DNA from: a virus
Virus record (IMG/VR): IMGVR_UViG_3300042317_001497
Direction: 5' to 3' (one strand)
Length of the DNA: 64,000 nt
A program made the position numbers and the translations under genes. Shown piece after piece: positions 7,717 through 25,529 of this stretch. How positions within the stretch are numbered: the stretch's first letter is position 1; the number at the start of each line of letters is the position of its first letter. The notes beneath the pieces are model-generated. The model did not search any database. It had not been told where the DNA came from and saw nothing but the letters and a program-made list of their open reading frames with translations.

Positions 7717-7798
7717 CCTAAACCTATGTGGCATAACAACTTAGGATCATTATACTCCGCAAAATTTTATGTAACTCCTTATGCCACAAGGATTTATG
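7717..7798. repeat. 82 bp paired-palindrome element, copy 1
   Basis: cctaaacctat-gtggcat-aacaacttagg / 24 nt / tgtaactcctt-atgccac-aaggatttatg. Confidence 0.85.
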
Positions 7799-7947
7799 AT
7801 GATTTTTGACGCAAAGACCGTGCTGCAAAAATTTTTCTCATTTGGCATGAAATTATATTCGAAAAATTGCAAAGATTTCTCTTGAAAGCGTCGATAAATA
7901 CTGTATAATTAAAGCACAAAGAGAACGATAACGCAAAGGACAAGAAA

Positions 7948-8377
7948 ATGAACAACAACGAAATCAAGCTGGGAGATGTGGTGGTGTGGAACTTTGTGTT
8001 TGACGTTCCGGAAGAGGATGGTGTTGTTGTAGGGTTGGACGGGGATAAAGTTCAAGTTGAGTATGTTGGATACATAATTGGTGGTGGTTCTAAGGTATGT
8101 CGGGAATGGCTGAACGTTGACGAAATCATGCTGGAATCGGAATACAATTCGCAGGTTTTCTAAGGTATTGACAAACACTTAGCCGATAAACTATAATAGA
8201 ATCAACACAAGAGAAAAAGGAAAAGAAATGACCATTCAAGTACAACACACCATTCGCCGCCTAGTTGCACATCATGGATATTCCGCAACATTTGTTCAGC
8301 ATATGGGCGAAGGCATTAGCCTCTATAGCATTGGTGGAATTATGTATCGTATTCGTGGCGATGGTACGATTCTCTAA
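7948..8377 (+). CDS. Two small hypothetical ORFs (7948-8163, 8228-8377)
   Basis: Each follows a TTGAAA/TTGACA...TATAAT promoter and a purine-rich leader; the second (49 aa) was translated manually. Confidence 0.65.
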
Positions 8378-8384
8378 AACTTGA

Positions 8385-8466
8385 CGTAAACTCTTACTGC
8401 TAAACGACTTACGACGAACGCGGCCGCAAAAATTTGCTGTAAGTACTTACCATATATAGACTTAGG
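8385..8466. repeat. 82 bp element, copy 2
   Basis: cgtaaactctt-actgcta-aacgacttacg / 24 nt / tgtaagtactt-accatat-atagacttagg. Confidence 0.9.
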
Positions 8467-8608
8467 GCTAATATAATGTTTAAGAGAAAATATTCTTTTG
8501 TTTTGGCATGAAATTATATTTGAAAAATTCCAAAAATTTCGCTTGCAACCTAAAGAATACTCTGTATAATGTCGATATAAGAGAAAAGGGAACGATAAAG
8601 AAAAGGGA

Positions 8609-9492
8609 ATGAAAATGATCACGCTGAACACTGTTGCTGAACTGACCAACTTCCTGAACAACAACGATATGCCCTCTCTGGTTGGAGAGGTTGTTTTCGC
8701 TGGTGATCTTCTCAGCCATGTTCGATCTCTCAACAATGCCATCAGTATCGACGAGGAAATCGGGTTTTGCGATGATGGTGGGGAGATTGTGATTGACGAT
8801 AACGGTAACGTTGTGAGCGATATGTATCTTCCGTAAGGGTATTGACAAGCAAAAATTGATAGGTATAATAGGAAGAAAGAAAGAGAGAAAGAAAATGCAG
8901 TTTGCTCTTGGTGATAAGGTGAAGGTTGACGGTAGGCTTGGACAGATCATTCTCTGGCATTTCGATGAGGGGAATATCTGGCACGTTGAGATTGACGGGG
9001 ATGAGTATGAGTGCTACGATGAGGATATGGAATTGATTTCCTAAAGAGGTAATAAGAATGTTTCTCACGTTTGACGATTTTTTGTTGTTGGGTGGTTTGC
9101 TCAGTTTTTGTGCTTTTATCACCTATACTGTGCATGAGGTGGGTAACGCTATCCGTTCTATGCTGGACATGGACAACTAAGCAAAGGAAAAGAAGATGAA
9201 TCACTGTGAAGCTGTTAAGATGGTGAAGGGAAAGGGTAATAAGAATACCCGTAAGGTGGGCAACAATACCTATGCGGAAATTCTTCCTGATGGTAGCGTG
9301 GGCATTATGCTACATAGTACCTATGTTGTTAAAATTCATCCCGACAATAGTGCTACCCTCAATACTGGGGGATGGTATACTAGCACCACGAAGGATCGAA
9401 TCAACAAGTATTCGCCCGTGCGTGTGTATCAAAAAAGGGGTGAATGGTATCTGAACAACGGTACACCATATGAGGATGGTATGGTGGTGTGA
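8609..9492 (+). CDS. Small hypothetical ORFs (8609-8836, 8895-9044, 9196-9492)
   Basis: ORF track plus purine-rich leaders; 9196-9492 carries GGWYTSTTKDRIN, a motif typical of a conserved phage family. Confidence 0.65.
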
Positions 9493-9522
9493 ACATCTGT
9501 ACGCTACTATACAAAAAATAGA

Positions 9523-9604
9523 CGTAAAGCCTTGACCCTAAACGACTTAGGGCGAGGCGGGCCGGCCCGGCTCGACGTAAGTACTTATGCCACAAGGGTT
9601 TATG
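9523..9604. repeat. 82 bp element, copy 3
   Basis: cgtaaagcctt-gacccta-aacgacttagg / 24 nt / cgtaagtactt-atgccac-aagggtttatg. Confidence 0.9.
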
Positions 9605-9734
9605 GCAAGTTTTGACGCAAGTGCTGTGCCACAAAATATTTTCTCATTTGGCATGAAATTATATTTGAAATTTCTCAAGATTTTGCTTGAAAGCGTCGAA
9701 TATATCTGTATAATGAAAGCACAGGAGAAAAACG

Positions 9735-9908
9735 ATGGAAAAGATGATTGACGAAAACGGCGAAGAATGGGTCGTGGGTTATGGAGAGGATGACGTTATG
9801 GATTTCGACGATTATTCGTGGGATCCGATCATGGGTGATGCCGATGAGCACATCGAAACGGACGATGAGTGGCTGGACGATTTTCAGGGTGAAGAAGAAT
9901 TTGCTTGA
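9735..9908 (+). CDS. Very acidic microprotein (57 aa)
   Basis: Manual: MEKMIDENGEEWVVGYGEDDVMDFDDYSWDPIMGDADEHIETDDEWLDDFQGEEEFA*; AGGAG RBS. Confidence 0.65.
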   Translation: MEKMIDENGEEWVVGYGEDDVMDFDDYSWDPIMGDADEHIETDDEWLDDFQGEEEFA

Positions 9909-10157
9909 AAGGAAAATGGTATGCTAGGGGCTATCCTGTTCGTGCTTTCATACATTGGACTTTTTTACGTTTGCGTGACTTGCAAGGAATAAAAAGGTAT
10001 AAGAATGAAAAACTGGATCTGCTACAATTTGTTTGGTGAGCATCCCGATGATGTGGACGCTTTCGGAATGATTAGTGGCTTGGGTATTCAAGCGTTTCTA
10101 ATCGGTTGGGCCGTCTATCTTTTTGTTTACGTTCCCTTCTTTTACTTTGGATGAAAA

Positions 10158-10334
10158 ATGAATATCTCTCAACTAAGCAAATGTACAGTACAAACCGCTT
10201 TAAGGATTGAGCAAATTCGTTTGCAATATGCTTTGAGCGAATCGGATAAAGAAAATATTAAAAATAGTATTAAGGAATTGTGTGCTGAACTACTGTATAG
10301 GTGGAAAAACGAGTTGCAAAACCTTAGCCCATAA
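10158..10334 (+). CDS. Hypothetical protein (58 aa); stop codon lies inside element copy 4
   Basis: Manual translation MNISQLSK...ELQNLSP*. Confidence 0.55.
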   Translation: MNISQLSKCTVQTALRIEQIRLQYALSESDKENIKNSIKELCAELLYRWKNELQNLSP

Positions 10335-10396
10335 GGAGTTACGACAAATTTTCGCCGCAAAATTTTCCCTAAGTACTTATGTACCAATAACTTACG
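10315..10396. repeat. 82 bp element, copy 4
   Basis: tgcaaaacctt-agcccat-aaggagttacg / 24 nt / cctaagtactt-atgtacc-aataacttacg. Confidence 0.9.
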
Positions 10397-10559
10397 ATAA
10401 GTTTTGACGCATATCGTATGCCAAAGCAAAATATTCTTTTTTGGCACGATATTCGCTGTGAGAAACCTTACGACATTGTAAGGAAACTACCAAAGATTTC
10501 GCTTGAAACCCAAAGAAAACTCTGTATAATGTCGGTATAAGAAGAAAGAGAGAAAGAAA

Positions 10560-10889
10560 ATGAAAACCAAGTTCCCTATCGTCGAAAACGCCAAGCGTCA
10601 AGCCAGACTGTGCTTCCTCGGGATTGCGATTCCTCACCAACCGTCCCTTGCGGATGGGGTGTATGGCCCGATCCGTAGTGAGAAGGTGCTGAAGTTCAAT
10701 CGCAAAGCCCTAAAGAATCTGGGCAAGATTCGCAAGGAAAAGGCTGATCCCCGCCTTGTTGGGGGTGAGGATCGCATGATTGTAAAGGTTGGCAAGCCGG
10801 GTTCGGCCGAAAGGGTTGCTGCTCTGGAGTCGCAATATGCCGCGATTCTTGCTTGTGGAGAGGAAGTATCCCCCTTTTCGGAGGGGTGA
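10560..10889 (+). CDS. Hypothetical basic protein
   Basis: ORF track; promoter and purine-rich leader upstream. Confidence 0.7.
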   Translation: MKTKFPIVENAKRQARLCFLGIAIPHQPSLADGVYGPIRSEKVLKFNRKALKNLGKIRKEKADPRLVGGEDRMIVKVGKPGSAERVAALESQYAAILACGEEVSPFSEG

Positions 10890-10917
10890 TCTTCTGTACA
10901 CTGTACAAAAAACTCGA

Positions 10918-10999
10918 CGTAAAGCCTTGCAGCATAAGGACTTACGGCGAATTTTTGCGGCCGAGCTTGACGTAAGTACTTATATACCAACGACTTACG
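10918..10999. repeat. 82 bp element, copy 5
   Basis: cgtaaagcctt-gcagcat-aaggacttacg / 24 nt / cgtaagtactt-atatacc-aacgacttacg. Confidence 0.92.
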
Positions 11000-11173
11000 T
11001 TCAATGCTTATATATTAGGCGTTTCTGCCTATATTCTGATCACTAGCAAATCCTGTGCCAAACTTGCTTCTCCAACCTTACAGCATTGTAAGGAAACTTT
11101 TTCTGATCTAGGCTATTGACATTGGACGATAATACTGGTATAATGATAGCACAAGAAAGAAAGAGAGAGAAAG

Positions 11174-11851
11174 ATGAATAGCAATATGATTGCAAAAGAG
11201 TTGAAGAAGTTGGGCTATACGCTGAAGAAGACTTCGGACATCGAAGCCCGTTGGATGGTCAGTTCTGACGTTCTCACCTACCATTGGGATTTCAAGGATT
11301 TGAAGGGTGTTCAGCGGTTCATGACCGATGAGCGAGCGTTGTATCGATATGCCAAAGCGAACGGTGCGACCACCCGATAGTGGGGGTTGACGATCAGAAA
11401 AAACTTCGCTAGAATACCAACACAAGAAAGAGAGAACAGAATGATTCAGATTGGTGATAGGGTTCAGGTTGGTTCAAGGATTGGTGTTGATCTGGCGTGG
11501 GCTGTGGTGGTGAACATCCTGCCAGCAATCGGGGACAGGGTAGCTATGTATTGTGTTCGGTTCGATGCCACTACCTCGAAACTGAATGAGTGCTGGGTGG
11601 ATGAGGGTATTGTGTATGGTCCGTTTCTTGATCAAAACTTTGGATGGAATTGAAAGGCTATACAAATGTTCTCACCGATGGAAAAAATTTGGATGAGCCT
11701 TGGCTTGCAAGGTGCTTTGGAAATGATGGACGCATCATGTTCTCTGGCCGAAAGGCTCACGGAAGAATGCGTGACTAATCCGGCAGTGAAAGATGCTCTA
11801 ATTCGAAGCATTGCTGCTGAAATTATAGGCAGTCGCCAAAGTATCTCCTAA
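11174..11851 (+). CDS. Small hypothetical ORFs (11174-11380, 11441-11653, 11666-11851)
   Basis: ORF track; the last stop codon lies in the left arm of element copy 6. Confidence 0.6.
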
Positions 11852-11928
11852 GTGCTTGCTATATAAAGACTTACGACAAACGGGGCGCGCCGGGCTTGAT
11901 GTAAGTACTTACCCCATAAGACTTTACG
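11847..11928. repeat. 82 bp element, copy 6
   Basis: cctaagtgctt-gctatat-aaagacttacg / 24 nt / tgtaagtactt-accccat-aagactttacg. Confidence 0.9.
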
Positions 11929-12084
11929 ACAACTTAGCAAATGGTGTGCCAAACCTCCACGAAATTACGAAAAGTTTTGTCAAAATCTTTTGACAATAAA
12001 ATTTCTGGATTTCTCTTGAAAGCTCAAGATGAGCATGGTATAATGTCGATATAAGAAGAAAGAAGAAAAGAAAGAGAGAAAAAA

Positions 12085-12246
12085 ATGGAATATCTGGATT
12101 ACGATCTGATGTCCGATTGCTGCGGTTCTGGTGTGGGCTTTCAAACCGGTGAGGGTGAGGACCGAATCGGAATTTGTATGGAGTGTCAAGACTGGTGTGG
12201 TGTGGTGGAAGATATTCCGGAAGATGAGGCCGCTAGTCTCAGCTAA
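12085..12246 (+). CDS. Acidic Cys-rich microprotein (53 aa)
   Basis: Manual: MEYLDYDLMSDCCGSG...GICMECQDWCGVVEDIPEDEAASLS*. Confidence 0.6.
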   Translation: MEYLDYDLMSDCCGSGVGFQTGEGEDRIGICMECQDWCGVVEDIPEDEAASLS

Positions 12247-12653
12247 TCCTGCGGATTTGGGCAAGCTGGGTATAGTCAGCAAGCTAGGGGAACCTTTCAA
12301 TATTGCAAGAAAATTTTCTAGTTGACAACTAAAGATTAGACTGTAGAATGTCGATATAAGAAGAAAGAGGAAAAAAGAAATGAAAACTTCACATCAAAAA
12401 GCTGTTGAAAGAATGGATCGGGAAACTAACCGTGCTATTAAACAGGTTAAGTTGTTGGAAAAACTCTATCTGGAAATGATGCAGAAGAAAGAGAAGGTTG
12501 GTAAATGACCACTATTATTATCATAAACGCTTGGATTTTTACCATCCTTGCTATGTATGCTTTTGCTAACGTGGCTTTCTGGTTGTTTGCTCAGGCTTTT
12601 GGTGTTGTTGATAATTATCTGCAAAATCAGTATTGGAAGAATAAGGAATAAAA

Positions 12654-12884
12654 ATGATTACTGTTGAACAAATTAGAGAATTGACCGATACTTACCTTGA
12701 GGGTTGTGAGGTTACTATTACCCGTTCGGGTTGTGGTTGGTCTACCCCTTGTGGTTGGCAAGTTTCTATTATTAGTGATATTCCCGGCGATCAGCATACA
12801 ATTTATTTGCGTGATGATAATACTGTGGATTCTGCTTGGTCTAAGATTACTACTCTTGCGGATAATGCTTTGAACCCCGCATAA
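12654..12884 (+). CDS. Hypothetical protein
   Basis: ORF track; AAGGA RBS. Confidence 0.6.
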   Translation: MITVEQIRELTDTYLEGCEVTITRSGCGWSTPCGWQVSIISDIPGDQHTIYLRDDNTVDSAWSKITTLADNALNPA

Positions 12885-13090
12885 TTAAAGAAAGGCGACA
12901 CGGATGGTCGATATTAACTGGGTGCAAATAGGTGTGGGATTTATTGCTGGCGTGTTGTGTTCTTGGTTTGTTTCTGATTTGGTTTTTTATGTAAGGAATA
13001 GTGAGGATAGCCATGATTAATTCGGATTCTATTATTCTGACCATTTCTTTTGTGGCTGGTTGCTTGGTTGCTTGGATTGTAAATTCTTAA

Positions 13091-13172
13091 CGCAAACCCT
13101 TGCCCTATAAAGACTTAGGGCAAACCGGGGCGGCCCCGCGAATCGTAACTCCTTTGATAGCATAGACTTACG
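13091..13172. repeat. 82 bp element, copy 7
   Basis: cgcaaaccctt-gccctat-aaagacttagg / 24 nt / cgtaactcctt-tgatagc-atagacttacg. Confidence 0.9.
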
Positions 13173-13320
13173 ACAAGCATTGACGCAAAAGCTGTGCCAC
13201 AAAAATATTTCCCGTTTGGCACAGAATTATATTTGAAAAATTCCAAAGATTTCGCTTGCATTGGCCGATAAACACTGTAGAATGACAGCATCACAAGGGA
13301 AACCACTAAGGGAAATACCA

Positions 13321-14043
13321 ATGCTTCACGATTTTGATGAAATCAATCTGATTCTGGCCGGTATGGTGGACGAGGGAATTGTTGAGCCGATTGACGATCC
13401 TAGCGTGGAAGTTGATTTTTGGGATTGGGCCGACATTGTTGGGGTTGTGGACGAGTGTGTACCGGAAGAGTATTCGGACAACCTTTCAATCTAGAAAGAT
13501 TCAAGAAAAGGTATTTGACAAGCCGATAATAGTAGTGTAGGATAGAGTGAAAGAAAGAGAAGGTGAATGATGAGTCGATATGATAACTGGAATGATGATG
13601 ACGATTCGGATGACGGCTATGATGCTGCTCGTGACGCTTACCTGACCGGCGAAGGTCCGGCTGTTACTCGTAGCCAAAGGCAAGAGGAAGAGGATTTGCG
13701 AGAAGAGTATCGCCGGAATCGGTGGTAGTCTCTTGACAAGCTAAGTTTTTTTGATAGACTGTGACCATAAGAAAGGAAAAGAAACATGAGCCATCCTGAT
13801 CCCCTTTACGATTTTGATAATTCTTATGATGATGATGCTGTTTTCTATGGAGAAGATAGTTCAAGCTATCATCCCGATGCGGAACATGAGGTTGAAAGTA
13901 ATTTTGATGATGAAGAAGATTTGGAGGACGAGGAGTATGATTCTTACAATGATAGCATGGATGGGGATTTTGATTCAGCCATGCGTGATGCGGGATTCGG
14001 AACGGATGAAGATTACGGTTACTACGGTGGAGAAGACTACTAA
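13321..14043 (+). CDS. Three acidic microproteins (13321-13494, 13567-13728, 13786-14043)
   Basis: D/E-rich translations, each with its own promoter-like TTGACA/TTGCAT element upstream. Confidence 0.65.
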
Positions 14044-14891: not shown

Positions 14892-14899
14892 GAATCCGC

Positions 14900-14981
14900 T
14901 CTAAACCCTTGGTACATAAGTACTTAGGGCGAGCGGGGCCGCAAAAATTTGACGTAACTCTTTATGTATCAACACTTTACA
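14900..14981. repeat. 82 bp element, copy 8
   Basis: tctaaaccctt-ggtacat-aagtacttagg / 24 nt / cgtaactcttt-atgtatc-aacactttaca. Confidence 0.9.
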
Positions 14982-15064
14982 TCTAAAAAAAATTTTCTCA
15001 AGATTCCCTCTTGCATTGGTCGATAATAGATGGTAGAATGACAATACGAAAGAAGGGGTGAAAC

Positions 15065-15795: not shown

Positions 15796-15825
15796 TAGCA
15801 GCTTCTGCCCAAAGAATGCCCAACT

Positions 15826-15907
15826 CCTAACCCTTTGACACCAAAGGACTTAGGACGCGGGCGGGCGGCCCGTTTCGTCGTAAGTCTTTATATATCAACA
15901 CTTTACG
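15826..15907. repeat. 82 bp element, copy 9
   Basis: cctaacccttt-gacacca-aaggacttagg / 24 nt / cgtaagtcttt-atatatc-aacactttacg. Confidence 0.9.
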
Positions 15908-15988
15908 ACAATCTTTTTCGCTCAAGCTTTTCCTCTTGACAGGCCGATAATAGTAGTGTAGAATACAGGGAATCAAAAGGAGAAAAAG

Positions 15989-16889
15989 ATGCTGTTTACG
16001 CCATATGCTTTGACGGATAAGGTAACTCGCAAGGTTAGTGATGAGGGTATGATTGAGTTTAGTGGGCTGTCGGTTGGGGGTCGTCATTTTTCCATAGTCA
16101 CTCGACTTGACGATGCTAACCGCTGGGTCAACGGAGAGTTGATTCAAAATGCTTTCCCGTATCTTGGTGCGGATGATCGTGAGATTCTCAAAACGGGAAT
16201 TGATGCTCAGGGTTGGGAAGAAATGTTCCCAGAATCGGAGGAGGAGGAAGTATGAATACCGATACTTATATGGTTATGAGAGGATATAAACTTTTGGGTT
16301 ATGTTGAGGCCCAGAGTACCTATCATGCTATTAGATTAGCGGAAAAGTACTATGGGGATAATATCATCGTGGAAAGAATCACGCATAACTGTCCCGCCTA
16401 ACCCTGCCGGGTTGGTTGAGTGGGTATAGTCAGCCAGTAGTCGGGGCTTGACAAAAGGTTTTTAATAGAGTATATTGAGCAGAAAGGGAGAGAATTATGT
16501 TGACAACTGAAGAACGAGATGCTGTTTCTGATTGTGTGAGAAATTTTGCCATTTGTCTGATAAATGCTACCACTGTTGATGAGCAAGCTGTGCATACTGA
16601 AATGGATACTTTCTTTGAGTTCTTTTGTAAGGCTCTTGAGATTGCCAGAACTGATGGTATCGTTAGAGTTCGTGAGTCTATTGGGGCTAGTAATAACTAA
16701 GGGGATACCATGAGAGTTTGTCCATGTGGGTCTGGCAAGAAAAGTTGGTGGGAAAGTGATGCTAGGGGAATTCCACTGGGTAGGGTTTGTTTGGAGTGTT
16801 TAGATAAAAAGTTGAGTAAGTATCGACCGGAAGTGTTGACCAACTCCAACTACTACGCCGACGAGCCTATTGAGGCCGAGGACTATTAG
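15989..16889 (+). CDS. Small hypothetical ORFs (15989-16255, 16252-16401, 16497-16700, 16710-16889)
   Basis: ORF track and manual translation; 16710-16889 starts MRVCPCGSGKK (SEC-C-like motif). Confidence 0.62.
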
Positions 16890-16890
16890 T

Positions 16891-16972
16891 CGTAAGTCCT
16901 TATCCTTAAAGCACTTAGGGATAGGGCGAGCGGCCGAAATCGACGTAAGTCCTTACCTCTAAACGATTTGCG
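16891..16972. repeat. 82 bp element, copy 10
   Basis: cgtaagtcctt-atcctta-aagcacttagg / 24 nt / cgtaagtcctt-acctcta-aacgatttgcg. Confidence 0.92.
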
Positions 16973-17034
16973 TCTAAAAAGATTTTTTCAAGAAATACTC
17001 TTGACAAGACGATAATAGATGGTAGAATGATTGA

Positions 17035-17693: not shown

Positions 17694-18847
17694 ATGAGTC
17701 TTTTAGATGTGTTGCTGAGTGAAAACACTGAACGCCTGCCTACTTTCAACGAGTTGAAAAAGATTTTACTAGCAGTTTGTCCTAATGGGCAAATTGAATG
17801 GGATAATAATAATCAGATTATTTTTTATACTAACTTGACCGATAACGAAGACGGAACACTCAGGGAGTTTGAATGATGACTGTATCCGAACTGATTGAGC
17901 AGTTGAAGAATTACCCGTCCGATATGAGAATTCTTACCCTTGGATATGAGGGTGGGTATAATGATGTGGACCTCAAGACTGAGGATATTGTTTTTAATTT
18001 TTCCAAGAATGATACTTGGTATTATGGGCCTCATGAATGTGTGAAGTTTACCGATGGGGATACTGGTACAAAGTGCTTGGTTGTTGTGAGGACTAAATAA
18101 TGAACTGGCATTATGGACAACCTATTGTAAATGGATCATATATTTGTTGTATAACAGGTTATTCTTCTCCTATTGATCTTATTTGGAATAAAGAAGAGGG
18201 TGGCTGGGGCGATTGGTGGCACGGTGAATATGACGATGGTTTAGCCGAATGGAATCAGTTTGACAATGATCTAGTGGTATGCTATATTGGTTTTGATGAG
18301 ATTCCTATGCCGGAGAATTGGTGATGGAATGGTTTAACTCTCATAAGAATCCGCCTGCTGTTGGGCAGAAGGTCTATTACTTTGGTCCCAATATTGGATT
18401 GTTTATTGGTCATTATTCATATGAAGAACGATCATTTGAAACATACTCCTATAATGAATATAATCAAAAGGTGGTGGATAAGGTATTAAGTATTTGTCCA
18501 CACGTTTTTACTAATATGAGTTTTGGGGTATGTGATGCTTGTGACGCTCCGTTCTGGCTTCCATATGATGAGGAACGAGCAAAGAGTTGGTGTCCCATTA
18601 TCCCAGAAGAATATACTCAGGGGTTGTATGACTAATGGCTAAAAACTTTAAAGATTTGCATACCATAGATGCTAAAGATATGACTCGTGATCAGGCTATG
18701 ATTTATGTTATTAACTTTTTTAACTCTCGTATGGCAACAATGAGCAATGCTCACAGAAATAAGGTTAAAGAGTTAATTGGTATTCATGAGATTGCTACTA
18801 GTGAACTAGTTAATAAATATCTGGAGTTAGTTCTTGAAAACTCTTAG
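17694..18847 (+). CDS. Coupled small hypothetical ORFs (17694-17876, 17873-18100, 18100-18324, 18318-18635, 18635-18847)
   Basis: ORF track; consecutive stop/start overlaps. Confidence 0.65.
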
Positions 18848-18848
18848 A

Positions 18849-18930
18849 TGCAACTTCTGACAGCATAAGGACTTAGGAGAAATCCGGCGGGCGAAATTTG
18901 TTGTAAGTACTTGACCGCAAAAGACTTACG
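18849..18930. repeat. 82 bp element, copy 11
   Basis: tgcaacttctg-acagcat-aaggacttagg / 24 nt / tgtaagtactt-gaccgca-aaagacttacg. Confidence 0.88.
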
Positions 18931-19174
18931 TTCAAAAATATTTTTTAAAGACTTCTCTTGACATTTGCCGATAATAGAAGTATACTTAAATCAAGACGAT
19001 AGATGAGGGCCGCTGGCAGAATGATATCAAAGAAGCCACGGTTAAATGCAAAGCCGAGTATGGCATAACCCAATCTATTTGTCTTGCCTAATCCTACGGA
19101 TTTGGTGGTCTTGGCGATAGTCAGCGAGAATACGGGGTCTTGACAAGATCGTTTCTATAAGGTATAGTATAAGC

Positions 19175-19600: not shown

Positions 19601-19971
19601 TTAAGGTTGAACTGGGTGTTCGTGAGGCTCTTACCATGATTTCTAATGGTTGCAGTCTGGATATGTTCGAGAAGATTGTTTGCTCACTGGAAGTGGCACT
19701 GGGTGTGAACCAGCGTTGTATGGTGACAATCACCGGAGGTATGAATCTGGATAATCGCATCCCTTGCATCAAGGCGATTCGGATTGCTACTGGCTGGGGT
19801 TTGAAGGAAGGTAAGGAGTGGACCGATGGTATGGTGGGTGGCTGGAAGTATGATAGGTTCGTGCCTGCTACCCCAAACACCAAGCAGAGCATCACCCTAA
19901 AATCGCCCGAACTGGCTGAGAAGTTGCTGCGTGATCTGGTTGGGCTGGGTTGTGAGGGCTTTCTCTCTTGA
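19597..19971 (+). CDS. Protein with ribosomal L7/L12 C-terminal-like domain
   Basis: NRIPCIKAIRIATGWGLKEGKEWTD matches the L12 CTD pattern K-I-x-x-IK-x-x-R-x-x-TG-x-GLKEAK. Confidence 0.7.
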   Translation: MIKVELGVREALTMISNGCSLDMFEKIVCSLEVALGVNQRCMVTITGGMNLDNRIPCIKAIRIATGWGLKEGKEWTDGMVGGWKYDRFVPATPNTKQSITLKSPELAEKLLRDLVGLGCEGFLS

Positions 19972-20053
19972 CCTAAAGCCTTGTCTCTAAAGAACTTAGA
20001 GCAAGGCGGGCCGGCCAAATTTGACGTAACTCCTTATGCTTCAATAACTTAGA
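19972..20053. repeat. 82 bp element, copy 12
   Basis: cctaaagcctt-gtctcta-aagaacttaga / 24 nt / cgtaactcctt-atgcttc-aataacttaga. Confidence 0.9.
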
Positions 20054-20255
20054 ACAAATCATGAGAATACCAAAAAATCATTCATGCAAACACCTTGACG
20101 ATGACGATACTATATGGTAGAATGATAGCATCACACGACAAGACGCTGGTTGAACCCGAAAACACAAAGTTTCGACCTAGCCCTTGACAAGTGATAATGT
20201 TGGATGTATAATTGGTTTACTTGGTTCGATAACACTTTTGGAAAGGTTTTTTACA

Positions 20256-20507
20256 ATGAAGAAGTTTAGCTTTGTGGTTGATGTGGTTGCGGATGAGCTT
20301 GATCGTGACGGCGTTGTGGATTCGATTCGTTCTTGCCTGAGCGATAGCCTCCCTGGCGATGTTCATGCGAATGTCAAGGCTGGCGAGGTCAAGGCTTTTT
20401 CGGAGCAGGGTTATAAGGTCTGGCGTGCTAGGGTCACGGGCGTGACTGCGGAGCAGGCCGGTGATGCCCACTCTGGTAAGGTTGAGAAGGAAACAGTCGA
20501 GGCTTGA
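20256..20507 (+). CDS. Hypothetical protein
   Basis: ATG at 20256 after GGAAAGG; ORF track frame. Confidence 0.65.
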   Translation: MKKFSFVVDVVADELDRDGVVDSIRSCLSDSLPGDVHANVKAGEVKAFSEQGYKVWRARVTGVTAEQAGDAHSGKVEKETVEA

Positions 20508-20554
20508 TCTTGACAAACTGGACTATGCCAGTATAAATAGATTTTAGGCATAGT

Positions 20555-20725
20555 GCGGCGGGATTCGTCCCGCGTAATGATGTGGGCTCAGACCCACCTA
20601 GCAGAGTCTAACCAACTAATAACCGGCGTGGTTGCCGGGAAGGGGTCTGCTGCTAGTAATATAACGATGGTAAAGTGATCCCACCATCAAACCGTATAGC
20701 CTCTATGGGACGCCATAGGGGCTTG
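20555..20725 (+). ncRNA. Small structured RNA candidate (five consecutive stems)
   Basis: Hairpins at 20558-20573, 20582-20597, 20598-20656 (nested 20623-20638), 20667-20690, 20699-20722; no ORF. Confidence 0.45.
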
Positions 20726-20759
20726 CGGCATTGAGTGGATATGGTATAATAGATGGCAC

Positions 20760-20831
20760 GGCCCCATAGTTAAATGGATATAATAAGTGACTTCTAATCT
20801 CTAGTTGCAGGTTCGATTCCTGCTGGGGCTA
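20760..20831 (+). tRNA. tRNA-Arg(TCT)
   Basis: Acceptor GGCCCCA/TGGGGCT, loop CTTCTAA, T-loop TTCGATT. Confidence 0.88.
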
Positions 20832-20835
20832 TTAT

Positions 20836-20909
20836 GGGGGCGTAGATCAATTGGTTAGATCGCTAGCTTGTCACGCTAGAGGTTGCGGGTTCGAGTCCCG
20901 TCGCTCTCG
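20836..20909 (+). tRNA. tRNA-Asp(GTC)
   Basis: Stem CTAGC/GCTAG, loop TTGTCAC, GGTTCGAG, G73. Confidence 0.9.
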
Positions 20910-20990
20910 CTAAGTTGTTGGTATATAAAGACTTAGATCAAATCCGGGCGGCCCCGTTTGCCGTAAGTCCTTATGCCACAAGCCTTTGCA
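20909..20990. repeat. 82 bp element, copy 13 (abuts the tRNA-Asp 3' end)
   Basis: gctaagttgtt-ggtatat-aaagacttaga / 24 nt / cgtaagtcctt-atgccac-aagcctttgca. Confidence 0.9.
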
Positions 20991-21066
20991 TCAAAAAATA
21001 ATTTCTTCAAGAATTGGTCTTGACTAGCCGATAATATAGTGTAGAATCGGTAGACAAGGGAGAATA

Positions 21067-21780
21067 ATGATGAAAACTGCAAATGGTAATGATAAGTTGG
21101 GTAAGGAAAATTGTATTGTGGTTTCGCGTCCGGTTGGCGATAGTTGTCCGTCCGATTGTGATTTTCTCGGTAACGGATGCTATGCAGAAGATTTGGAAAA
21201 TATCTATCCCGGTGTTCGTCCTGCCGGTATGCAAAATCTTGTTACAGAAAAGAATAGTATTCGCTCCATGCTGGTGGATGCCGTCAAGAAAAATAAAGAT
21301 GTTCGCTGGCATGAGCGTGGCGACTTTTTCAAGTATGGTGAACTTGACAATGAATATGTTGATAATGTATTGTGGGCCTGTGAGAATATTCTTGCCAGTG
21401 GTGGTAGTCTGCCGACCATGTGGGCTTATACCCATATTTATGACACTAGATTGTCTATGGAACTTGGCAAGTATATCAATATGTATGCTAGTATCCATGA
21501 TGGTGAAGATATGAAACAGGCTAAGGCTGCTGGTTTCAAACTGTTCGCATGGTGTGATAGTGATACTAAAATTGCCCCTAAGCGTCCGCGTGGTAAGAAT
21601 AAGGTTGCAGCATGGCGATCAGCACTGCCGAAACTAGTTGTGCTGGAAGGTGAAAAGTTTGTCACTTGCCCGGAAATTCGTCGTGGTCGTGGAGTTGTCA
21701 CTTGCACAAAAACCAAAAATAGCGTACACTGTGACTTGTGCGTTCGTGGTTTGGCTAATGTTTTGTTTCCTGCACACTAA
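21067..21780 (+). CDS. Gp88-like Cys-rich phage protein
   Basis: N-x-KL...SC-x3-C-x5-CYA...VRWHERGDF...WAYTH and C-terminal C..C..C; pattern of the gene product 88-like family. Confidence 0.6.
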   Translation: MMKTANGNDKLGKENCIVVSRPVGDSCPSDCDFLGNGCYAEDLENIYPGVRPAGMQNLVTEKNSIRSMLVDAVKKNKDVRWHERGDFFKYGELDNEYVDNVLWACENILASGGSLPTMWAYTHIYDTRLSMELGKYINMYASIHDGEDMKQAKAAGFKLFAWCDSDTKIAPKRPRGKNKVAAWRSALPKLVVLEGEKFVTCPEIRRGRGVVTCTKTKNSVHCDLCVRGLANVLFPAH

Positions 21781-21791
21781 GGAGTTTAATA

Positions 21792-22028
21792 ATGTCTAAA
21801 TATTATATCAAGTGTGGTACTCTGGAACTAATTTACTCTACAGATAAAAGTTCTGTTGAAGCGGCGGTTACAAGTTTGTTTGAGAGTAATAAGTTTGATA
21901 CATTAGATGAATACTTCTATATTGATGAGCGTGGTTTTAGAGACTATCTAACTGCTGATAAGCAAACGGAAGTTTTGAAACTGAATGTAATCGCAAAGAT
22001 GGGTGGATGGACGCTAGGTAACGACTAA
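21792..22028 (+). CDS. Hypothetical protein
   Basis: ORF track; AAGGAG RBS. Confidence 0.65.
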   Translation: MSKYYIKCGTLELIYSTDKSSVEAAVTSLFESNKFDTLDEYFYIDERGFRDYLTADKQTEVLKLNVIAKMGGWTLGND

Positions 22029-22035
22029 AACTAAC

Positions 22036-22117
22036 CGCAAACCCTTACTGCATAAGCACTTAGGGCGAGCGGGGCCGGCCAAATTTGACGTAAGTGCAAT
22101 GGCCTCAACCACTTAGG
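22036..22117. repeat. 82 bp element, copy 14
   Basis: cgcaaaccctt-actgcat-aagcacttagg / 24 nt / cgtaagtgcaa-tggcctc-aaccacttagg. Confidence 0.88.
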
Positions 22118-22185
22118 ATTTTTTAAAGAAAAGGTTGACAAGTGCCGATAACTATGATATGATTAAACGGAAAGGATGGGACAGC

Positions 22186-22542
22186 GTGATCCAATGGATT
22201 GGGGTACTGATTGCTCTGTTAGGTTTGGCATATACTGGCGTTAAAGATTATCAAAAAGGTGATTTAAAAATTCCAAAAATACCATCTAGACAAAAGATTG
22301 TGTATCCTATACAATACTGTCTAATGGCTTATGATCCTAACATAGACAAAGTTTTTTATTTACACGACAATGGAATATGGCATGACTATGCACCACCTCA
22401 ACGACGATATTCGCCCACGACGCAACCACAACAAAATCAAGGTCAAGGTCAAGAAGCCTTGGGAGTTGTCAACGGGACACAAGGAACATCGGGATACCGT
22501 TATGGACAATCGCCCCAAGCGGTTGCGAACCCGATCCGCTGA
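22186..22542 (+). CDS. Membrane-anchored hypothetical protein (GTG start)
   Basis: TM helix IQWIGVLIALLGLAYTG; Q/G-rich C-terminus overlaps the next ORF. Confidence 0.55.
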   Translation: MIQWIGVLIALLGLAYTGVKDYQKGDLKIPKIPSRQKIVYPIQYCLMAYDPNIDKVFYLHDNGIWHDYAPPQRRYSPTTQPQQNQGQGQEALGVVNGTQGTSGYRYGQSPQAVANPIR

Positions 22543-22576
22543 AAAGCGTCGGGCTTGCGAGGATTATCACTATTGA
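22370..22576 (+). CDS. Small basic protein overlapping the previous ORF in another frame
   Basis: KIKVKVKKPWELSTGHKEHRDTVMDNRPKRLRTR; composition looks protein-like. Confidence 0.5.
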   Translation: MEYGMTMHHLNDDIRPRRNHNKIKVKVKKPWELSTGHKEHRDTVMDNRPKRLRTRSAEKRRACEDYHY

Positions 22577-22592
22577 TTATAATAGGTAGATT

Positions 22593-22663
22593 GCCCGCAT
22601 AGTATAATGGTAATACAGTTGATTTGTAATCATCTAATACTAGTTCGATTCTAGTTGTGGGCT
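22593..22663 (+). tRNA. tRNA-Thr(TGT)
   Basis: GCCCGCA/TGTGGGC, loop TTTGTAA. Confidence 0.82.
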
Positions 22664-22664
22664 C

Positions 22665-22735
22665 TCCGGGATGGTGTAACAGTAGCACAGAACACTTTGG
22701 ATGTTCTTGTCTAGGGGCGGAACCTAGTCCCGGAA
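22665..22735 (+). tRNA. tRNA-Gln(TTG) with atypical T-loop GGCGGAA
   Basis: TCCGGGA/TCCCGGA, stem GAACA/TGTTC, loop CTTTGGA. Confidence 0.78.
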
Positions 22736-22739
22736 TTTT

Positions 22740-22811
22740 ACGAAGGTAGCATAATGGTAGTGCCGCAAACTGTTAATTTGCTCTGTGTAGGTTCGACTCC
22801 TACCCTTCGTG
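22740..22811 (+). tRNA. tRNA-Asn(GTT)
   Basis: ACGAAGG/CCTTCGT, loop CTGTTAA. Confidence 0.88.
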
Positions 22812-22814
22812 CTT

Positions 22815-22899
22815 GGCTGGATGGCAGAGTGGTCTAATGCACCGGTTTACTAAACCGACGAGGAGAAATCCTCCACAAGTTCGAATCTTGTTCCAGCCG
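22815..22899 (+). tRNA. tRNA-Ser(ACT), A34 anticodon
   Basis: GGCTGGA/TCCAGCC, G73, long variable arm GAGGAGAAATCCTC, loop TTACTAA. Confidence 0.82.
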
Positions 22900-22903
22900 C
22901 TTA

Positions 22904-22985
22904 GGTAGATTACTCAAGCGGACAACGAGGGCAGACTGTAAATCTGCTGGCATTGCCTTCGCTGGTTCGAATCCAGCATCTACCA
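22904..22985 (+). tRNA. tRNA-Tyr(GTA)
   Basis: GGTAGAT/ATCTACC, stem GCAGA/TCTGC, loop CTGTAAA, variable arm. Confidence 0.9.
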
Positions 22986-23066
22986 CTAAGTTGTTGGTAT
23001 ATAAAGACTTAGAGCAAATTCAGCGGGCCGTTTTTGACGTAAGTGCTTATCAGATAACGACTTAGG
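22985..23066. repeat. 82 bp element, copy 15 (abuts the tRNA-Tyr 3' end)
   Basis: actaagttgtt-ggtatat-aaagacttaga / 24 nt / cgtaagtgctt-atcagat-aacgacttagg. Confidence 0.9.
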
Positions 23067-23123
23067 ATTTTCTAAAGACAGGACTTGACTCTTGCCGATA
23101 AGTAGAGTATGATTGAAAGACAC

Positions 23124-23199
23124 GGGGCGTAAGGTAAGCCGGTTGCATCCGTCACTCTTATAAGGTGATCATAGGTACGTTCGACTCGTACACGCCCTA
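23124..23199 (+). tRNA. tRNA-Ile(TAT)
   Basis: GGGGCGT/ACGCCCT, stem TCACT/GGTGA, loop CTTATAA, GTTCGA. Confidence 0.75.
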
Positions 23200-23239
23200 C
23201 TTTTAAGCTTCGGAGGCTGACGTTTGAGTTGCGATGGCT

Positions 23240-23311
23240 GGCCCCATAGTCTAACGGCTAGGACGACAGCCTTTCACGCTGTAGATCGGAGTTCGATTCT
23301 CCGTGGGGTCA
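23240..23311 (+). tRNA. tRNA-Glu(TTC)
   Basis: GGCCCCA/TGGGGTC, loop CTTTCAC. Confidence 0.9.
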
Positions 23312-23351
23312 CTTGACAAATAAAAAAAGAATGGTATACTAGAAAACCCTT

Positions 23352-23424
23352 GGGGGTGTAACTTAGCGACTAAAGTAGCGGTCTTTTAAACCGTTTATCG
23401 TGGGTTTGAGTCCCACCGCCCCCA
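23352..23424 (+). tRNA. tRNA-Lys(TTT)
   Basis: GGGGGTG/CGCCCCC, loop CTTTTAA. Confidence 0.85.
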
Positions 23425-23478
23425 CTTGACAAGTATGTTTGGTTGGTGTATAATGTTGGAAAGAAAGGAAGGTTGATT

Positions 23479-23649
23479 ATGCGTTATAGTGATGATTACG
23501 AACAGTATGATTATGACTATGATGAATTGGTAGAAAATGCCGATGATCTTGGTCTAGATGAAGAACCTTGGATGGATGAAGAAGAAGATGACGAGGTTCC
23601 TTCTTATGGAAAGAATTATTATCCTGACATAACAGAAGACGATTGCTAA
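23479..23649 (+). CDS. Very acidic microprotein (56 aa)
   Basis: MRYSDDYEQYDYDYDELVENADDLGLDEEPWMDEEEDDE... Confidence 0.65.
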   Translation: MRYSDDYEQYDYDYDELVENADDLGLDEEPWMDEEEDDEVPSYGKNYYPDITEDDC

Positions 23650-23654
23650 TTTTT

Positions 23655-23739
23655 GTGGATGCTTCTAGGTGGGACTAGACTCTTTTCTTTATCCTTTCTT
23701 TCTTTTCTTGAATAGCCGGTTCGAATCCGGCCATCCACA
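23655..23739 (+). pseudogene. tRNA-like element lacking an anticodon arm
   Basis: Acceptor GTGGATG/CATCCAC and T-arm GCCGG-TTCGAAT-CCGGC are intact; the middle is a pyrimidine tract. Confidence 0.55.
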
Positions 23740-23744
23740 CTTAT

Positions 23745-24254
23745 ATGAATGTTTTGAGCCAAAAGCCCGATGATTTTCGTCGTACTCCAGACGGTAAAGT
23801 TATTCAAGGTGCTAGCCACACTTGCCGTGTGCTAAATCATAAAGAGCGTAATAAGATTATTATTAAGGCTGTTTGTGATCTTAGGAAAATTAAGGATCAG
23901 TTTGATACTATAGCTTGTTGTGGCGTAAGTGGTTTGATGGTTGTTCCACAGATCGCTGAACTTCTAGATAAGCATATTTTAATTATTCGCAAAAATGAAA
24001 GATGCTACAGTGAATTTAGAACTGAGGGCGTTGCTCCTTTTCAATATGTGGTTGTTGATGATCTTGTTTGCTCTGGGGATACGATAAAGAGAATACAGAA
24101 TACTATTAAGGATGAATACCCAAGAGCAATTTGTAAGGGTATTTATTTCTATATTCCAGACCAGTGTGTTTATCGGCCAGACGAGGATGGCTCTAAACTA
24201 TGCTTGAGGGATCTAAAGGCCCCGCTCCTAAACCTAGGCCACCAAAAGACTTAG
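23745..24254 (+). CDS. Type I phosphoribosyltransferase-like protein
   Basis: PRPP-binding motif VVVDDLVCSGDT; CCGVSG loop; stop codon lies in element copy 16. Confidence 0.78.
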   Translation: MNVLSQKPDDFRRTPDGKVIQGASHTCRVLNHKERNKIIIKAVCDLRKIKDQFDTIACCGVSGLMVVPQIAELLDKHILIIRKNERCYSEFRTEGVAPFQYVVVDDLVCSGDTIKRIQNTIKDEYPRAICKGIYFYIPDQCVYRPDEDGSKLCLRDLKAPLLNLGHQKT

Positions 24255-24308
24255 GACGAACCGGGGCGGCCCCGCCCGACGTAAGTGCTTATATACCAAC
24301 GACTTGCG
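24227..24308. repeat. 82 bp element, copy 16
   Basis: cctaaacctag-gccacca-aaagacttagg / 24 nt / cgtaagtgctt-atatacc-aacgacttgcg. Confidence 0.9.
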
Positions 24309-24408
24309 TCACGAAATTTTTCCGCAAGTTTGCCCCTTGACACTGCCGATAATAGATGGTAGAATCAGCGTATCGGAACGAAGAATCAGTAACACGAAAG
24401 GGTTGATT

Positions 24409-25356
24409 ATGCCTGCTATGGTCGAAAAGATGATGTTTGTTGGTGCTACCCCTTGGCATGGTGAGGGTACGCAGCTCGATGAGAATCCCTCTATTTCTGA
24501 GGCGATTACCGCTGCTGGTCTGGATTGGGAAGTTGGTACGAAGCCGTTGTTTACGTCGGAAGGCGAGGAAGTCAACGCCAAGGCGACTTTCCGTAAGACC
24601 GATAATAGGGTGCTGGGAGTTGTGGGTCCGCGTTATACCCCTCTCCAGAATCAAGATGCTTTTGATTGGTTCCAGCCGTTTCTGGACGCTGGCGAGTGCC
24701 AACTGCACACCGCCGGTTCGCTCAGTGAGGGCGAGAAGGTTTGGGTGTTGGCTCAACTCAATCGTGCGAACAGCGAAATTGTTCCCGGCGATGAGGTGAG
24801 CAAGTTTATCCTGCTGAGTAACAGCCACGACGGTACAACGTCGATCCGCGTCGGATATACTCCGATCCGCGTGGTCTGCGTGAATACTCTCGCTGCTGCC
24901 CACTCCAACAAGGACAGCCAGTTGATTCGGATTCGTCACACACGCTCCAGCAAGACCAATCTGGATAACGTGCGAGACATCATGGATAATATCAACGTGC
25001 AGTTCGAGGCGACTGCGGAACAGTATAGGTTCCTCGCCTCTAAGGATTTCAATCAGAACGATATTCGTAAGTATGTCAAGATTCTGCTGGGGATTGATAA
25101 GACCCCGGACGAAGATATCAAGACTCGTACCCGCAATATCATGGATGAAATCTTGACGCTTGTGGAAGGCCCGAAGCAGAGTGCTACGAATGTTCGTGGA
25201 ACATGGTGGGCTGCCTATAATGGCTTCAATGAGTATCTGAACTATAGCAAGGGTCGCACGGTGAGCAATCGCCTCGACTCACTCTGGTTCGGACAGAATG
25301 GGGTTGATAACGTCAAGGCACTCAATACCGCAGTGGAGTTTGCGAACGCCGTCTGA
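24409..25356 (+). CDS. DUF932 (TIGR03299-like) phage/plasmid protein
   Basis: PWHGEG, LGVVGPRYTPLQN, TAGSLSEGEKVW, LLSNSHDG, TPIRVVCVNT, RIRHT, GTWWAAYN. Confidence 0.88.
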   Translation: MPAMVEKMMFVGATPWHGEGTQLDENPSISEAITAAGLDWEVGTKPLFTSEGEEVNAKATFRKTDNRVLGVVGPRYTPLQNQDAFDWFQPFLDAGECQLHTAGSLSEGEKVWVLAQLNRANSEIVPGDEVSKFILLSNSHDGTTSIRVGYTPIRVVCVNTLAAAHSNKDSQLIRIRHTRSSKTNLDNVRDIMDNINVQFEATAEQYRFLASKDFNQNDIRKYVKILLGIDKTPDEDIKTRTRNIMDEILTLVEGPKQSATNVRGTWWAAYNGFNEYLNYSKGRTVSNRLDSLWFGQNGVDNVKALNTAVEFANAV

Positions 25357-25381
25357 TCTTTTCGTGTCACGATGAAAAGGG

Positions 25382-25422
25382 GGAGGGCCGCGGCTGGGAA
25401 ACTGGCTGCGGCCTTCTCTTTT
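25382..25422 (+). terminator. Intrinsic terminator
   Basis: GAGGGCCGCGGCTGG-GAAA-CTGGCTGCGGCCTTCTC followed by TTTT. Confidence 0.75.
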
Positions 25423-25447
25423 GGTTGCTGCGAAACGGTTCACTAGA

Positions 25448-25529
25448 CGTAAGTACTTGCAACATAAGGACTTACGGCGAACCGGGCCGCGAAATTTTGT
25501 CGTAACTTTAGTATTCATAAGGACTTACG
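25448..25529. repeat. 82 bp element, copy 17
   Basis: cgtaagtactt-gcaacat-aaggacttacg / 24 nt / cgtaactttag-tattcat-aaggacttacg. Confidence 0.9.

Follow-up and report, generated by a model that had tools for sequence, protein, structure and literature searches.

A stretch of 64,000 nucleotides (nt) from IMG/VR virus record IMGVR_UViG_3300042317_001497, here called the window and forming part of the large (about 230 kb) genome of an uncultured lake phage, was analysed for a repeated 88-bp element that had been noticed at the ends of gene modules. Using nhmmer with a model built from the copies themselves, 17 co-oriented elements were located at 7715-25533 and nowhere else in the 64 kb, at start-to-start distances of 603-1958 nt (mean 1108), in agreement with the spacing given by a first-pass annotation. 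In the reading put forward here, to which we give an even chance, each element would be a rigid site recognised by a protein as double-stranded DNA and joined in helical register to a strong sigma70-type early promoter, and this composite unit (element, A/T linker and promoter) would punctuate a promoter-dense, GC-enriched early region of about 20 kb that is shuffled by homologous recombination. The bound protein may control the downstream promoter, block upstream read-through like the polar 'stoperators' of other phages, or both. Since the unit would fill the only non-coding gap between successive gene sets, upstream genes would extend as far as its left edge or beyond it, with the conserved TAG or TAA of the element serving as their stop codons, and since units recur about every 1.1 kb in one orientation, the phage's own recombination of the RecA/UvsX type could duplicate, delete or swap the modules between them.

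The 17 copies were collected by repeat finding and aligned without any gap, and at 17 of 17 elements the plus strand outscored the minus strand in nhmmer. The consensus, cTnGaCGTAAa.CCTTg...c.tAAGGACTTAGGGC.Ag...GGCcGGCC...tTtGaCGTAAGTcCTTAt....CAAcGACTTACGaCaA, holds four near-palindromic boxes per element (A, B, C and D, of the form TAAG-NN-CTTA), which are paired as two 11-7-11 dyads, A-B and C-D, flanking a GC-rich core (GGCCGGCC). Box A resembles box C and box B resembles box D in the manner of direct repeats, like boxes lying 53 bp (about five helical turns) apart, and the entire element is an imperfect inverted repeat as well. Orientation is given by small, consistent asymmetries: box A is mostly GTAAAC or GTAAGT, box D is mostly GACTTAC, and an A/T tract is found to the right of the core only. 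The centres are G-run/C-run sequences (e.g. CCGGGGCGGCCCCG) followed by TTTG; the consensus 3' of the centre reads tTtGaCG, with a U-tract of only 2-3 nt. Coordinates of all elements are collected in Table 1.

A fixed-spacing pattern of the invariant columns matched the window 20 times, all 17 elements included, and shuffled sequences 0 times. Among IMG/VR contigs the same pattern occurred in more than 117 stretches, many of which contain 5-9 copies; from 100 such loci an element profile recovered 369 elements. Of the 344 strong family matches, 340 have neither insertions nor deletions and are of one length. Orientation agreed with that of the own array in 92% of family copies, the dissenting ones being ambiguous because the strand scores differ by a median of only 2.9 bits. 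Five relatives rated 100% complete (223-238 kb) carry 16-17 elements each, within one region of about 20 kb and none elsewhere. A related terminase was detected by tblastn (E <= 1e-3) on no fewer than 595 contigs of IMG/VR, the 80 best matches having 77-84% identity, and some of these terminase relatives carry degenerate full elements or single-dyad variants with a profile score below 35 bits. Element-model variants were also noted in L265 (reverse-complemented upstream flank), 7130-7230 and 9210-9290, and weak partial matches to the model lie just outside the array of the window (25582-25617, 25732-25770 and 26916-26959; E 0.02-0.7). A 90-nt repeat of 79% identity (20885-20974 and 22961-23050) covers a tRNA 3' end (tRNA-Asp in one copy, tRNA-Tyr in the other) together with the left half of the next element.

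In 13-14 of the 17 elements, a gene or tRNA 3' end lies no more than 29 nt from the element start. Stops inside the site are conserved triplets of the element itself, namely TAG in the left flank (alignment columns 9-11), TAA in box A (columns 15-17) and TAA or TAG in box B (columns 30-32 and 38-40), and tRNA-Asp and tRNA-Tyr overlap the start of the model, whose first columns are weakly conserved, by 3 nt at their 3' ends. The upstream stops that the first-pass annotation had placed at or inside the left site (8377, 10334, 11851, 14891, 16889, 18847, 19971, 22028 and 24254) are all ends of plus-strand open reading frames (ORFs). Family-wide statistics on stops and promoters were taken from the 304 copies in IMG/VR relatives with enough flank. 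An ORF of at least 50 amino acids ended between -40 and +45 of the element start at 65% of these copies versus 22% of random positions, with sharp peaks at the positions of the conserved TAG and TAA.

All cargo had been assigned to the plus strand, and this strand indeed carries every tRNA, Pfam-supported gene and strong promoter of the array. Long minus-strand ORFs are without family matches, and two of them shadow the DUF932 and GP88 genes; a tally of tblastx frames was uninformative as to the coding strand at about 70% DNA identity. The cargo was rightly described as microproteins, tRNAs and non-coding RNAs: small ORFs, mostly ORFans without a family, stand beside tRNAs, a Pistol ribozyme, ORF-free stretches and genes matching DUF932, GP88/DUF7227, DUF7249, Kyano_Gp96 and, weakly, a PRTase-like family. 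The self-cleaving Pistol ribozyme (20517-20579, plus strand; 55.7 bits with Rfam RF02679, whose gathering score is 34.5) sits within a module and precedes tRNA-Arg and tRNA-Asp by about 180 nt. Two ORF-poor stretches with promoters of their own, 17035-17642 and 25540-26000, lie in or after modules and are candidate non-coding RNAs.

The expectation that a new promoter follows the right site held throughout the window, where a sigma70-type promoter was found 8-112 nt downstream of 17/17 elements. After 15 of the 17 it matches the consensus at 10/12 positions or better; the other two (13256 and 15011) are of the form TTGCAT-16/17-TGnTAGAAT. Ten copies have a short layout with the -35 hexamer 8-37 nt past the element, and seven have a long 'class I' layout with offsets of 72-112 and an extra conserved block. 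Family-wide, a sense promoter (at least 10/12) within 130 nt was present at 72% of copies, versus 20% of controls and 9% for the antisense strand. Near-consensus promoters (at least 11/12) number 25 in the array region, all on the plus strand and overall twice the shuffled expectation; no such enrichment was detected at 27-47 kb of the window. Roughly 35-40 strong promoters accompany the 17 elements, i.e. about two per element, and therefore many array promoters have no element upstream. The proposal of self-contained promoter-bearing cassettes stands in that each interval opens with a strong promoter of its own and ends at an element, but the modules are not limited to a single promoter.

The distance from the element end to the -35 hexamer forms, across the family, a ladder at 14, 24/25, 35/36, 46/47 and 58 nt. 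After removal of near-duplicate linkers its periodogram peaked at 11-11.5 nt (R = 0.55, a statistic that counts related sequences and not independent events), and linkers lengthen in units of A/T tracts. With steps of about 11 nt, element and promoter stay in constant rotational register on the helix, which agrees with a nucleoprotein complex assembled ahead of the promoter or with phased DNA curvature, and disagrees with a terminator that merely has some unrelated promoter behind it. The spacer between the -35 and -10 hexamers has a conserved (G)CCGATAAT/CGATACT motif, and the -10 region is often TGnTAGAAT (e.g. 15936-15964, 17001-17028 and 24337-24365, and family-wide); a spacer conserved in this way suggests an extra recognition step at these promoters. 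On the minus strand, sigma54 -24/-12 type motifs (TGGCAC-N5-TTGC) point leftwards into class I elements, with a varying 5-nt spacer and the GG and GC positions kept in the window. Across the family, 49 of 301 elements are followed by this motif at 0-60 nt, and the remainder of the sampled stretches of about 790 nt contained it only about 8 times. The left arm also forms a GTGCCA-N17-19-TGGCA dyad with a downstream TTTGGCA(T/C).

Pairing was assessed for a global hairpin, for local A:B and C:D hairpins and for the centre. For the global hairpin, variable columns were Watson-Crick paired in 0.22-0.35 of copies, which corresponds to chance, and the mutual information was about 0.03. Mutual information as a whole was dominated by neighbouring columns, with all long-range pairs at or below 0.22 bits. 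In the 17 copies of the window, pairing reached 62.2% compared with 64.6% in shuffled alignments, and 494 of 500 shuffles attained the observed covariation score. The dyad stems, with 2-3 mismatches per 11 bp, paired no better than expected from independent columns and did not favour G-U over A-C; the conserved positions are the box letters. Folding energies of the centre (mean -7.6 kcal/mol), the right half and the whole element equalled those of column-permuted controls, and folds of single sequences were mutually inconsistent. A left-half fold that was 3 kcal/mol better than the column-permuted controls was discarded, as its registers were heterogeneous and the signal was traced to neighbouring-column correlation in box A and not to pair covariation. 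Taken together, the rigid length, the conserved letters and the lack of compensatory change point to sequence-specific recognition of the duplex. A search of Rfam at a permissive threshold gave no family matching the elements. They lack the GC-rich hairpin followed by at least 5 U of an intrinsic terminator, and no covariation of the kind that marks an RNase III processing site was detected in global or local registers. Canonical terminators were not enriched in the array region (19 found versus 13.7 expected), and one of them falls in an element.

A module map was drawn up from the window and the five complete relatives (G1-G5). Across the right two thirds of the array the order D J E F G H C (C) I is conserved with elements at matching gene ends, so that the relation of element positions to gene ends, proposed as a check by the first-pass annotation, is kept in homologous genomes over this part; orthologous elements retain their dyad spacers and drift in their centres. 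Comparison of the contents between consecutive elements, likewise proposed, revealed whole modules gained, lost or duplicated in the left third, with 2-4 copies of paralogous 'A' modules (a Kyano_Gp96-like gene among their contents), unique modules, and modules K, B and L present or absent. The longer repeated class I blocks are located in this variable third.

Junctions, which were read from metagenome contigs at 70-95% identity, vary in place between left edge, centre, and promoter or leader. Contigs L016 and L053 (93% identity) differ by a clean indel of one module plus one element, with a 34-nt overlap in the promoter/leader. G3 is without module J, and the homology of this genome to D ends at the stop codon that lies at the left edge of the element. 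Element 10, at the J|E boundary, is orthologous to G2, G4 and G5 in its left half and not in its right half; between the window and G2, identity falls from about 94% in the left half to about 50% in the right half, and the next module is not shared. In G1 and G2, tRNA-Tyr and element 15 are missing together at the homologous place. Over all element pairs, the types of the two halves combine almost independently (the left half is common to 384 pairs, the right half to 176 and both to only 38, again counted over related sequences and not over independent events), and one-sided flank homology was seen at 80% of real boundaries versus 61% of mid-module pseudo-boundaries. Judged from these alignments, the elements are probably preferred exchange points, though not exclusive ones. 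Neither histograms of the ends of high-scoring segment pairs nor pooled identity profiles narrowed the crossover to one point, the profiles displaying no sharp switch. Logan contigs from four runs were set aside as recombination evidence: contigs break at repeats, the shorter side of joints between elements measured 19-39 letters with one exception (75), and the joints probably derive from related phages or repeats.

The five complete genomes were searched for the enzymes that such exchange might use. Tyrosine (PF00589) and serine (PF00239) recombinases gave no match in them, whereas control genomes were matched (PF00589 in all 14); the Y1 (RAYT) transposase PF01797 was absent from all five, and no integrase was seen in the flanks of the window. 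A RecA/UvsX-like gene is present in 5/5.

Several observations weigh against a protein-bound site coupled to the early promoter. No binder was found, Pfam searches of 37 plus-strand ORFs in and around the array having returned no DNA-binding domain, and HU/IHF is absent from the five complete genomes. Since about half of the strong array promoters lack an element, promoter activity does not depend on one. Phased A-tract linker units, instead of contact with an element-bound protein, could be the source of the 11-nt ladder, and the enrichment of mosaic boundaries at elements is modest. Finally, the foldable GC-rich centre resembles the polyG/polyC stem-loops of promoter-early stem-loop (PeSL) cassettes, and a weak terminator hairpin there is possible; like PeSL stem-loops, a G-run/C-run centre would fold in most copies because of its base composition. 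The last point leads to punctuation at the RNA level, which is rather improbable in our estimate: the centre, with or without the dyads, would fold in the plus-strand transcript and terminate or attenuate transcription of the upstream unit, or give it a 3' structure for processing or stability, with the downstream promoter restarting transcription. The elements do stand directly after stops and tRNA 3' ends and are co-oriented with transcription, their G-run/C-run centres precede TTTG and have the mean folding energy given above, no other terminators are enriched in the array, and PeSL polyG/polyC stem-loops terminate in reporter assays (PMC2839356). Against this, covariation is missing in any register, the U-tract spans only 2-3 nt, the terminator scan matched one element only, RNase III is absent from the five complete phage genomes, and the invariant length over more than 340 copies, the four boxes and the helical ladder would be left unexplained.

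The 11-7-11 inverted repeats also have the geometry of tyrosine-recombinase core sites, and with the stops within the left site (as at attC sites), the crossover in the element centre at J|E and the independent assortment of left and right halves they could speak for integron-like, site-specific movement of promoter-bearing cassettes. This we regard as quite unlikely: none of the recombinases or the Y1 transposase was matched in the complete genomes, junctions fall also at the left edge and in the promoter/leader, two thirds of the array are syntenic across genomes, the length is fixed without an attC-like covarying fold, and a tyrosine recombinase would be unable to exchange strands between elements whose dyad spacers are unlike, as they are here. 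Scarcely better are the prospects of a DNA-transaction system of the phage outside the recognisable recombinase or repressor families, in which a phage-encoded protein forming a tetramer on the two 11-7-11 sites would insulate the early transcription units and also catalyse or direct exchange at the GC-rich core. An enhancer or leader role for antisense sigma54-type promoters, suggested by the frequency of the TGGCAC-N5-TTGC motif after family elements compared with elsewhere and by its presence after elements 3-7, is very unlikely, given that the motif accompanies only about 15% of elements, that the element would lie downstream of the promoter, an unusual place for an enhancer, and that the search for a Sigma54_activat activator gave only weak matches (E about 0.002-0.005), read as generic AAA+ ATPases. 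Hardly credible is a selfish miniature repeat that spread into intergenic gaps with no function of its own, in the manner of miniature inverted-repeat transposable elements (MITEs) or repetitive extragenic palindromes (REPs). Its copy number, palindromic ends and intergenic place would suit, but copies are restricted to one region of about 20 kb per 230-kb genome, have one orientation and a fixed helical register with promoters, and occupy orthologous positions across genomes; neither the cognate transposase (or RAYT) nor the dispersed copies of REP/RAYT systems or MITEs were found in the five complete genomes.

Among known systems, PeSL cassettes were described in T4-type phages (Arbiol et al. 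2010, PMC2839356; Comeau et al. 2014, PMC4122927). The likeness extends to repeated composite motifs in a plastic early region, to the joining of a GC-rich element to a strong sigma70 early promoter that is preceded by an A/T-rich tract (here 17/17 in the window), to flanked small ORFans with gain, loss or replacement of modules between relatives and junctions in the repeat, and to the invocation of phage homologous recombination without a dedicated recombinase. The present elements differ in that the upstream part is a length-invariant 88-bp double dyad with four boxes instead of a simple stem-loop, without structural covariation, that the promoter is helically phased, that all units form a single GC-enriched array of about 20 kb, and that the terminase of the phage clade matches those of cultured phages only distantly (about 25% identity). 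The attC site (59-base element) of integrons consists of two 'simple sites' around a variable centre; it varies in length (57-141 bp) and sequence, maintains the fold of its bottom strand by covariation and depends on IntI beside attI, and integron cassettes are mostly promoterless. Here, too, an imperfect inverted repeat of two such sites directly follows the ORF and often holds its stop, in a co-oriented array of roughly 1-kb units; however, length and sequence are fixed, covariation and integrase are lacking, every unit carries a promoter and synteny is kept at most boundaries. The integron analogy thus holds for position and architecture and fails each mechanistic test applied, and the integron-like mechanism implied by the word 'cassettes' in the first-pass annotation was not borne out, in view of fixed length, absent covariation and recombinases, scattered junctions and stable synteny. 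By analogy, the closest known concept is the PeSL promoter/terminator cassette and not the integron.

Stoperators of cluster A mycobacteriophages (L5 gp71) are 13-bp asymmetric sites, distributed genome-wide and bound by a monomeric immunity repressor encoded by these temperate phages, which are thought to halt elongation as well as initiation (PMC9283540). Many oriented copies in short intergenic gaps at gene ends are common to both systems, but the present sites are 88 bp long, built of dyads and restricted to the early array, and the complete relatives are without a detected integrase or resolvase. The host-takeover module of Bacillus phage SPO1 contains dense small early genes in many short units with their own strong host-type promoters, and uses ordinary terminators together with a few RNase III sites; to our knowledge, no conserved 88-bp double dyad has been described there. 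Dense small early genes in short promoter-led units are likewise present here, although the terminase is only about 25% identical to those of Bacillus phages.

All members examined of this very large uncultured freshwater phage clade use one highly constrained 88-bp element in the immediate-early region. If the element binds a protein, it would offer a compact module that insulates or regulates strong bacterial promoters according to its orientation, and a handle for the phage factor that runs the early programme. The PeSL idea of regulatory repeats that double as recombination substrates for accessory genes would be extended beyond T4-type coliphages and vibriophages, and the system suits questions of recombination because left and right repeat halves are separately traceable. 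Should the double dyads instead serve a DNA-transaction system, lytic jumbo phages would gain an integron-like, promoter-bearing platform for host-takeover genes, tRNAs and ribozymes.

Table 1. Coordinates of elements, promoters and further features in the window. Bits are nhmmer scores. Offsets of elements give the last 3' end relative to element model position 1, offsets of promoters the distance past the element (nt). D, J and E denote modules; G2, G4 and G5 are complete relatives.
Feature	Position	Strand	Bits	Details
Element 1 (class I unit)	7715..7802	+	49	after S8 protease gene, stop 7605, offset -110
Element 2	8383..8470	+	60.5	ORF stop 8377, offset -6
Element 3	9521..9608	+	70.2	ORF stop 9492, offset -29
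Element 4	10313..10400	+	52.4	ORF stop 10334 within box B, offset +21
Element 5	10916..11003	+	74.2	ORF stop 10889, offset -27
Element 6	11845..11932	+	66.1	ORF stop 11851 = box A TAA, offset +6
Element 7	13089..13176	+	61.9	ORF stop 13020 (-69), or 13090 (+1) of a doubtful 29-aa ORF
Element 8	14898..14985	+	68.0	ORF stop 14891, offset -7
Element 9 (boundary D|J, orthologous in G2, G4, G5)	15824..15911	+	65.7	ORF stop 15795, offset -29
Element 10 (boundary J|E)	16889..16976	+	62.1	stop 16889 = flank TAG, offset 0
Element 11	18847..18934	+	59.3	ORF stop 18847, offset 0
Element 12	19970..20057	+	69.4	ORF stop 19971, offset +1
Element 13	20907..20994	+	64.3	adjoins tRNA-Asp 3' end 20910, offset +3
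Element 14	22034..22121	+	67.9	ORF stop 22028, offset -6
Element 15	22983..23070	+	60.2	adjoins tRNA-Tyr 3' end 22986, offset +3
Element 16	24225..24312	+	62.7	ORF stop 24254 within box B, offset +29
Element 17 (last)	25446..25533	+	62.0	DUF932 gene stop 25356, offset -90
Promoter after element 1	7882..7909	+		TTGAAA-16-TATAAT, offset 79
Promoter after element 2	8543..8570	+		TTGCAA-16-TATAAT, offset 72
Promoter after element 3	9687..9714	+		TTGAAA-16-TATAAT, offset 78
Promoter after element 4	10503..10530	+		TTGAAA-16-TATAAT, offset 102
Promoter after element 5	11116..11144	+		TTGACA-17-TATAAT, offset 112
Promoter after element 6	12016..12044	+		TTGAAA-17-TATAAT, offset 83
Promoter after element 7	13256..13283	+		TTGCAT-16-TAGAAT + TG extension, offset 79; by eye, below scanner threshold
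Promoter after element 8	15011..15039	+		TTGCAT-17-TAGAAT + TG extension, offset 25; by eye
Promoter after element 9	15936..15964	+		offset 24
Promoter after element 10	17001..17028	+		offset 24
Promoter after element 11	18958..18986	+		offset 23
Promoter after element 12	20095..20123	+		offset 37
Promoter after element 13	21020..21047	+		offset 25
Promoter after element 14	22135..22163	+		offset 13
Promoter after element 15	23085..23113	+		offset 14
Promoter after element 16	24337..24365	+		offset 24
Promoter after element 17	25542..25570	+		TAGACA-17-TATACT, offset 8
TGGCAC-N5-TTGC motif	9612-9632	-		follows element 3
TGGCAC-N5-TTGC motif	10404-10425	-		follows element 4
TGGCAC-N5-TTGC motif	~11050-11070	-		follows element 5
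TGGCAC-N5-TTGC motif	11937-11955	-		follows element 6
TGGCAC-N5-TTGC motif	13180-13201	-		follows element 7
Second repeat family copy	12234-12285			
Second repeat family copy	16421-16446			
Second repeat family copy	19079-19130			
Second repeat family copy	25654-25705			
Second repeat family copy	25924-25982			
Large terminase subunit	2-1771	-		
Conserved 103-aa first ORF	5937-6248			resembles signal-peptide, Tyr-rich protein; elsewhere recurs only in L048
tmRNA	51079-51434	+		tag peptide GVNQLALAA
rIIA	60220-62910			
rIIB	63005-63877			

Alongside its terminase, rIIA and rIIB genes (Table 1), the window encodes an ATP-dependent DNA ligase, a transfer-messenger RNA (tmRNA), ten tRNAs and the Pistol ribozyme. 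The 24 listed sequencing runs with window DNA are all lake or freshwater DNA metagenomes. Searches for cultured relatives with the array and with a single element (megablast and blastn) against 50,697 phage records returned nothing relevant. For a place among the T4-type myoviruses (Tevenvirinae and relatives), rIIA, rIIB, DNA ligase and a UvsX/RecA-like gene are on hand, but the nearest cultured matches of the terminase are Bacillus siphophage-type terminases at only about 25% identity. Prokaryote genomes were also considered as a clue to the host: single matches were at chance level, and the few multi-copy matches were short contigs in metagenome-assembled genomes. The taxa of these assemblies are inconsistent and the contigs were read as mis-binned phage DNA, and therefore no host can be inferred.

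With respect to composition, the array stands out as an island, with a G+C content of 41-46% at about 8000-26000 compared with about 32% elsewhere; structured RNAs, early codon usage or foreign origin are possible causes. Two minus-strand regions adjoin the array, one at 4840-5502 with a weak match to Sigma70 region 2 (E 5e-4, below the Pfam cut-off) and one at 1743-2231 with an ERCC4-type nuclease match (E 4e-8). A second repeat family (…CTAATCC..CGGATTTG…GATAGTCAGC…), without a match in Rfam, was found in 4-5 copies within modules and just past the last element.

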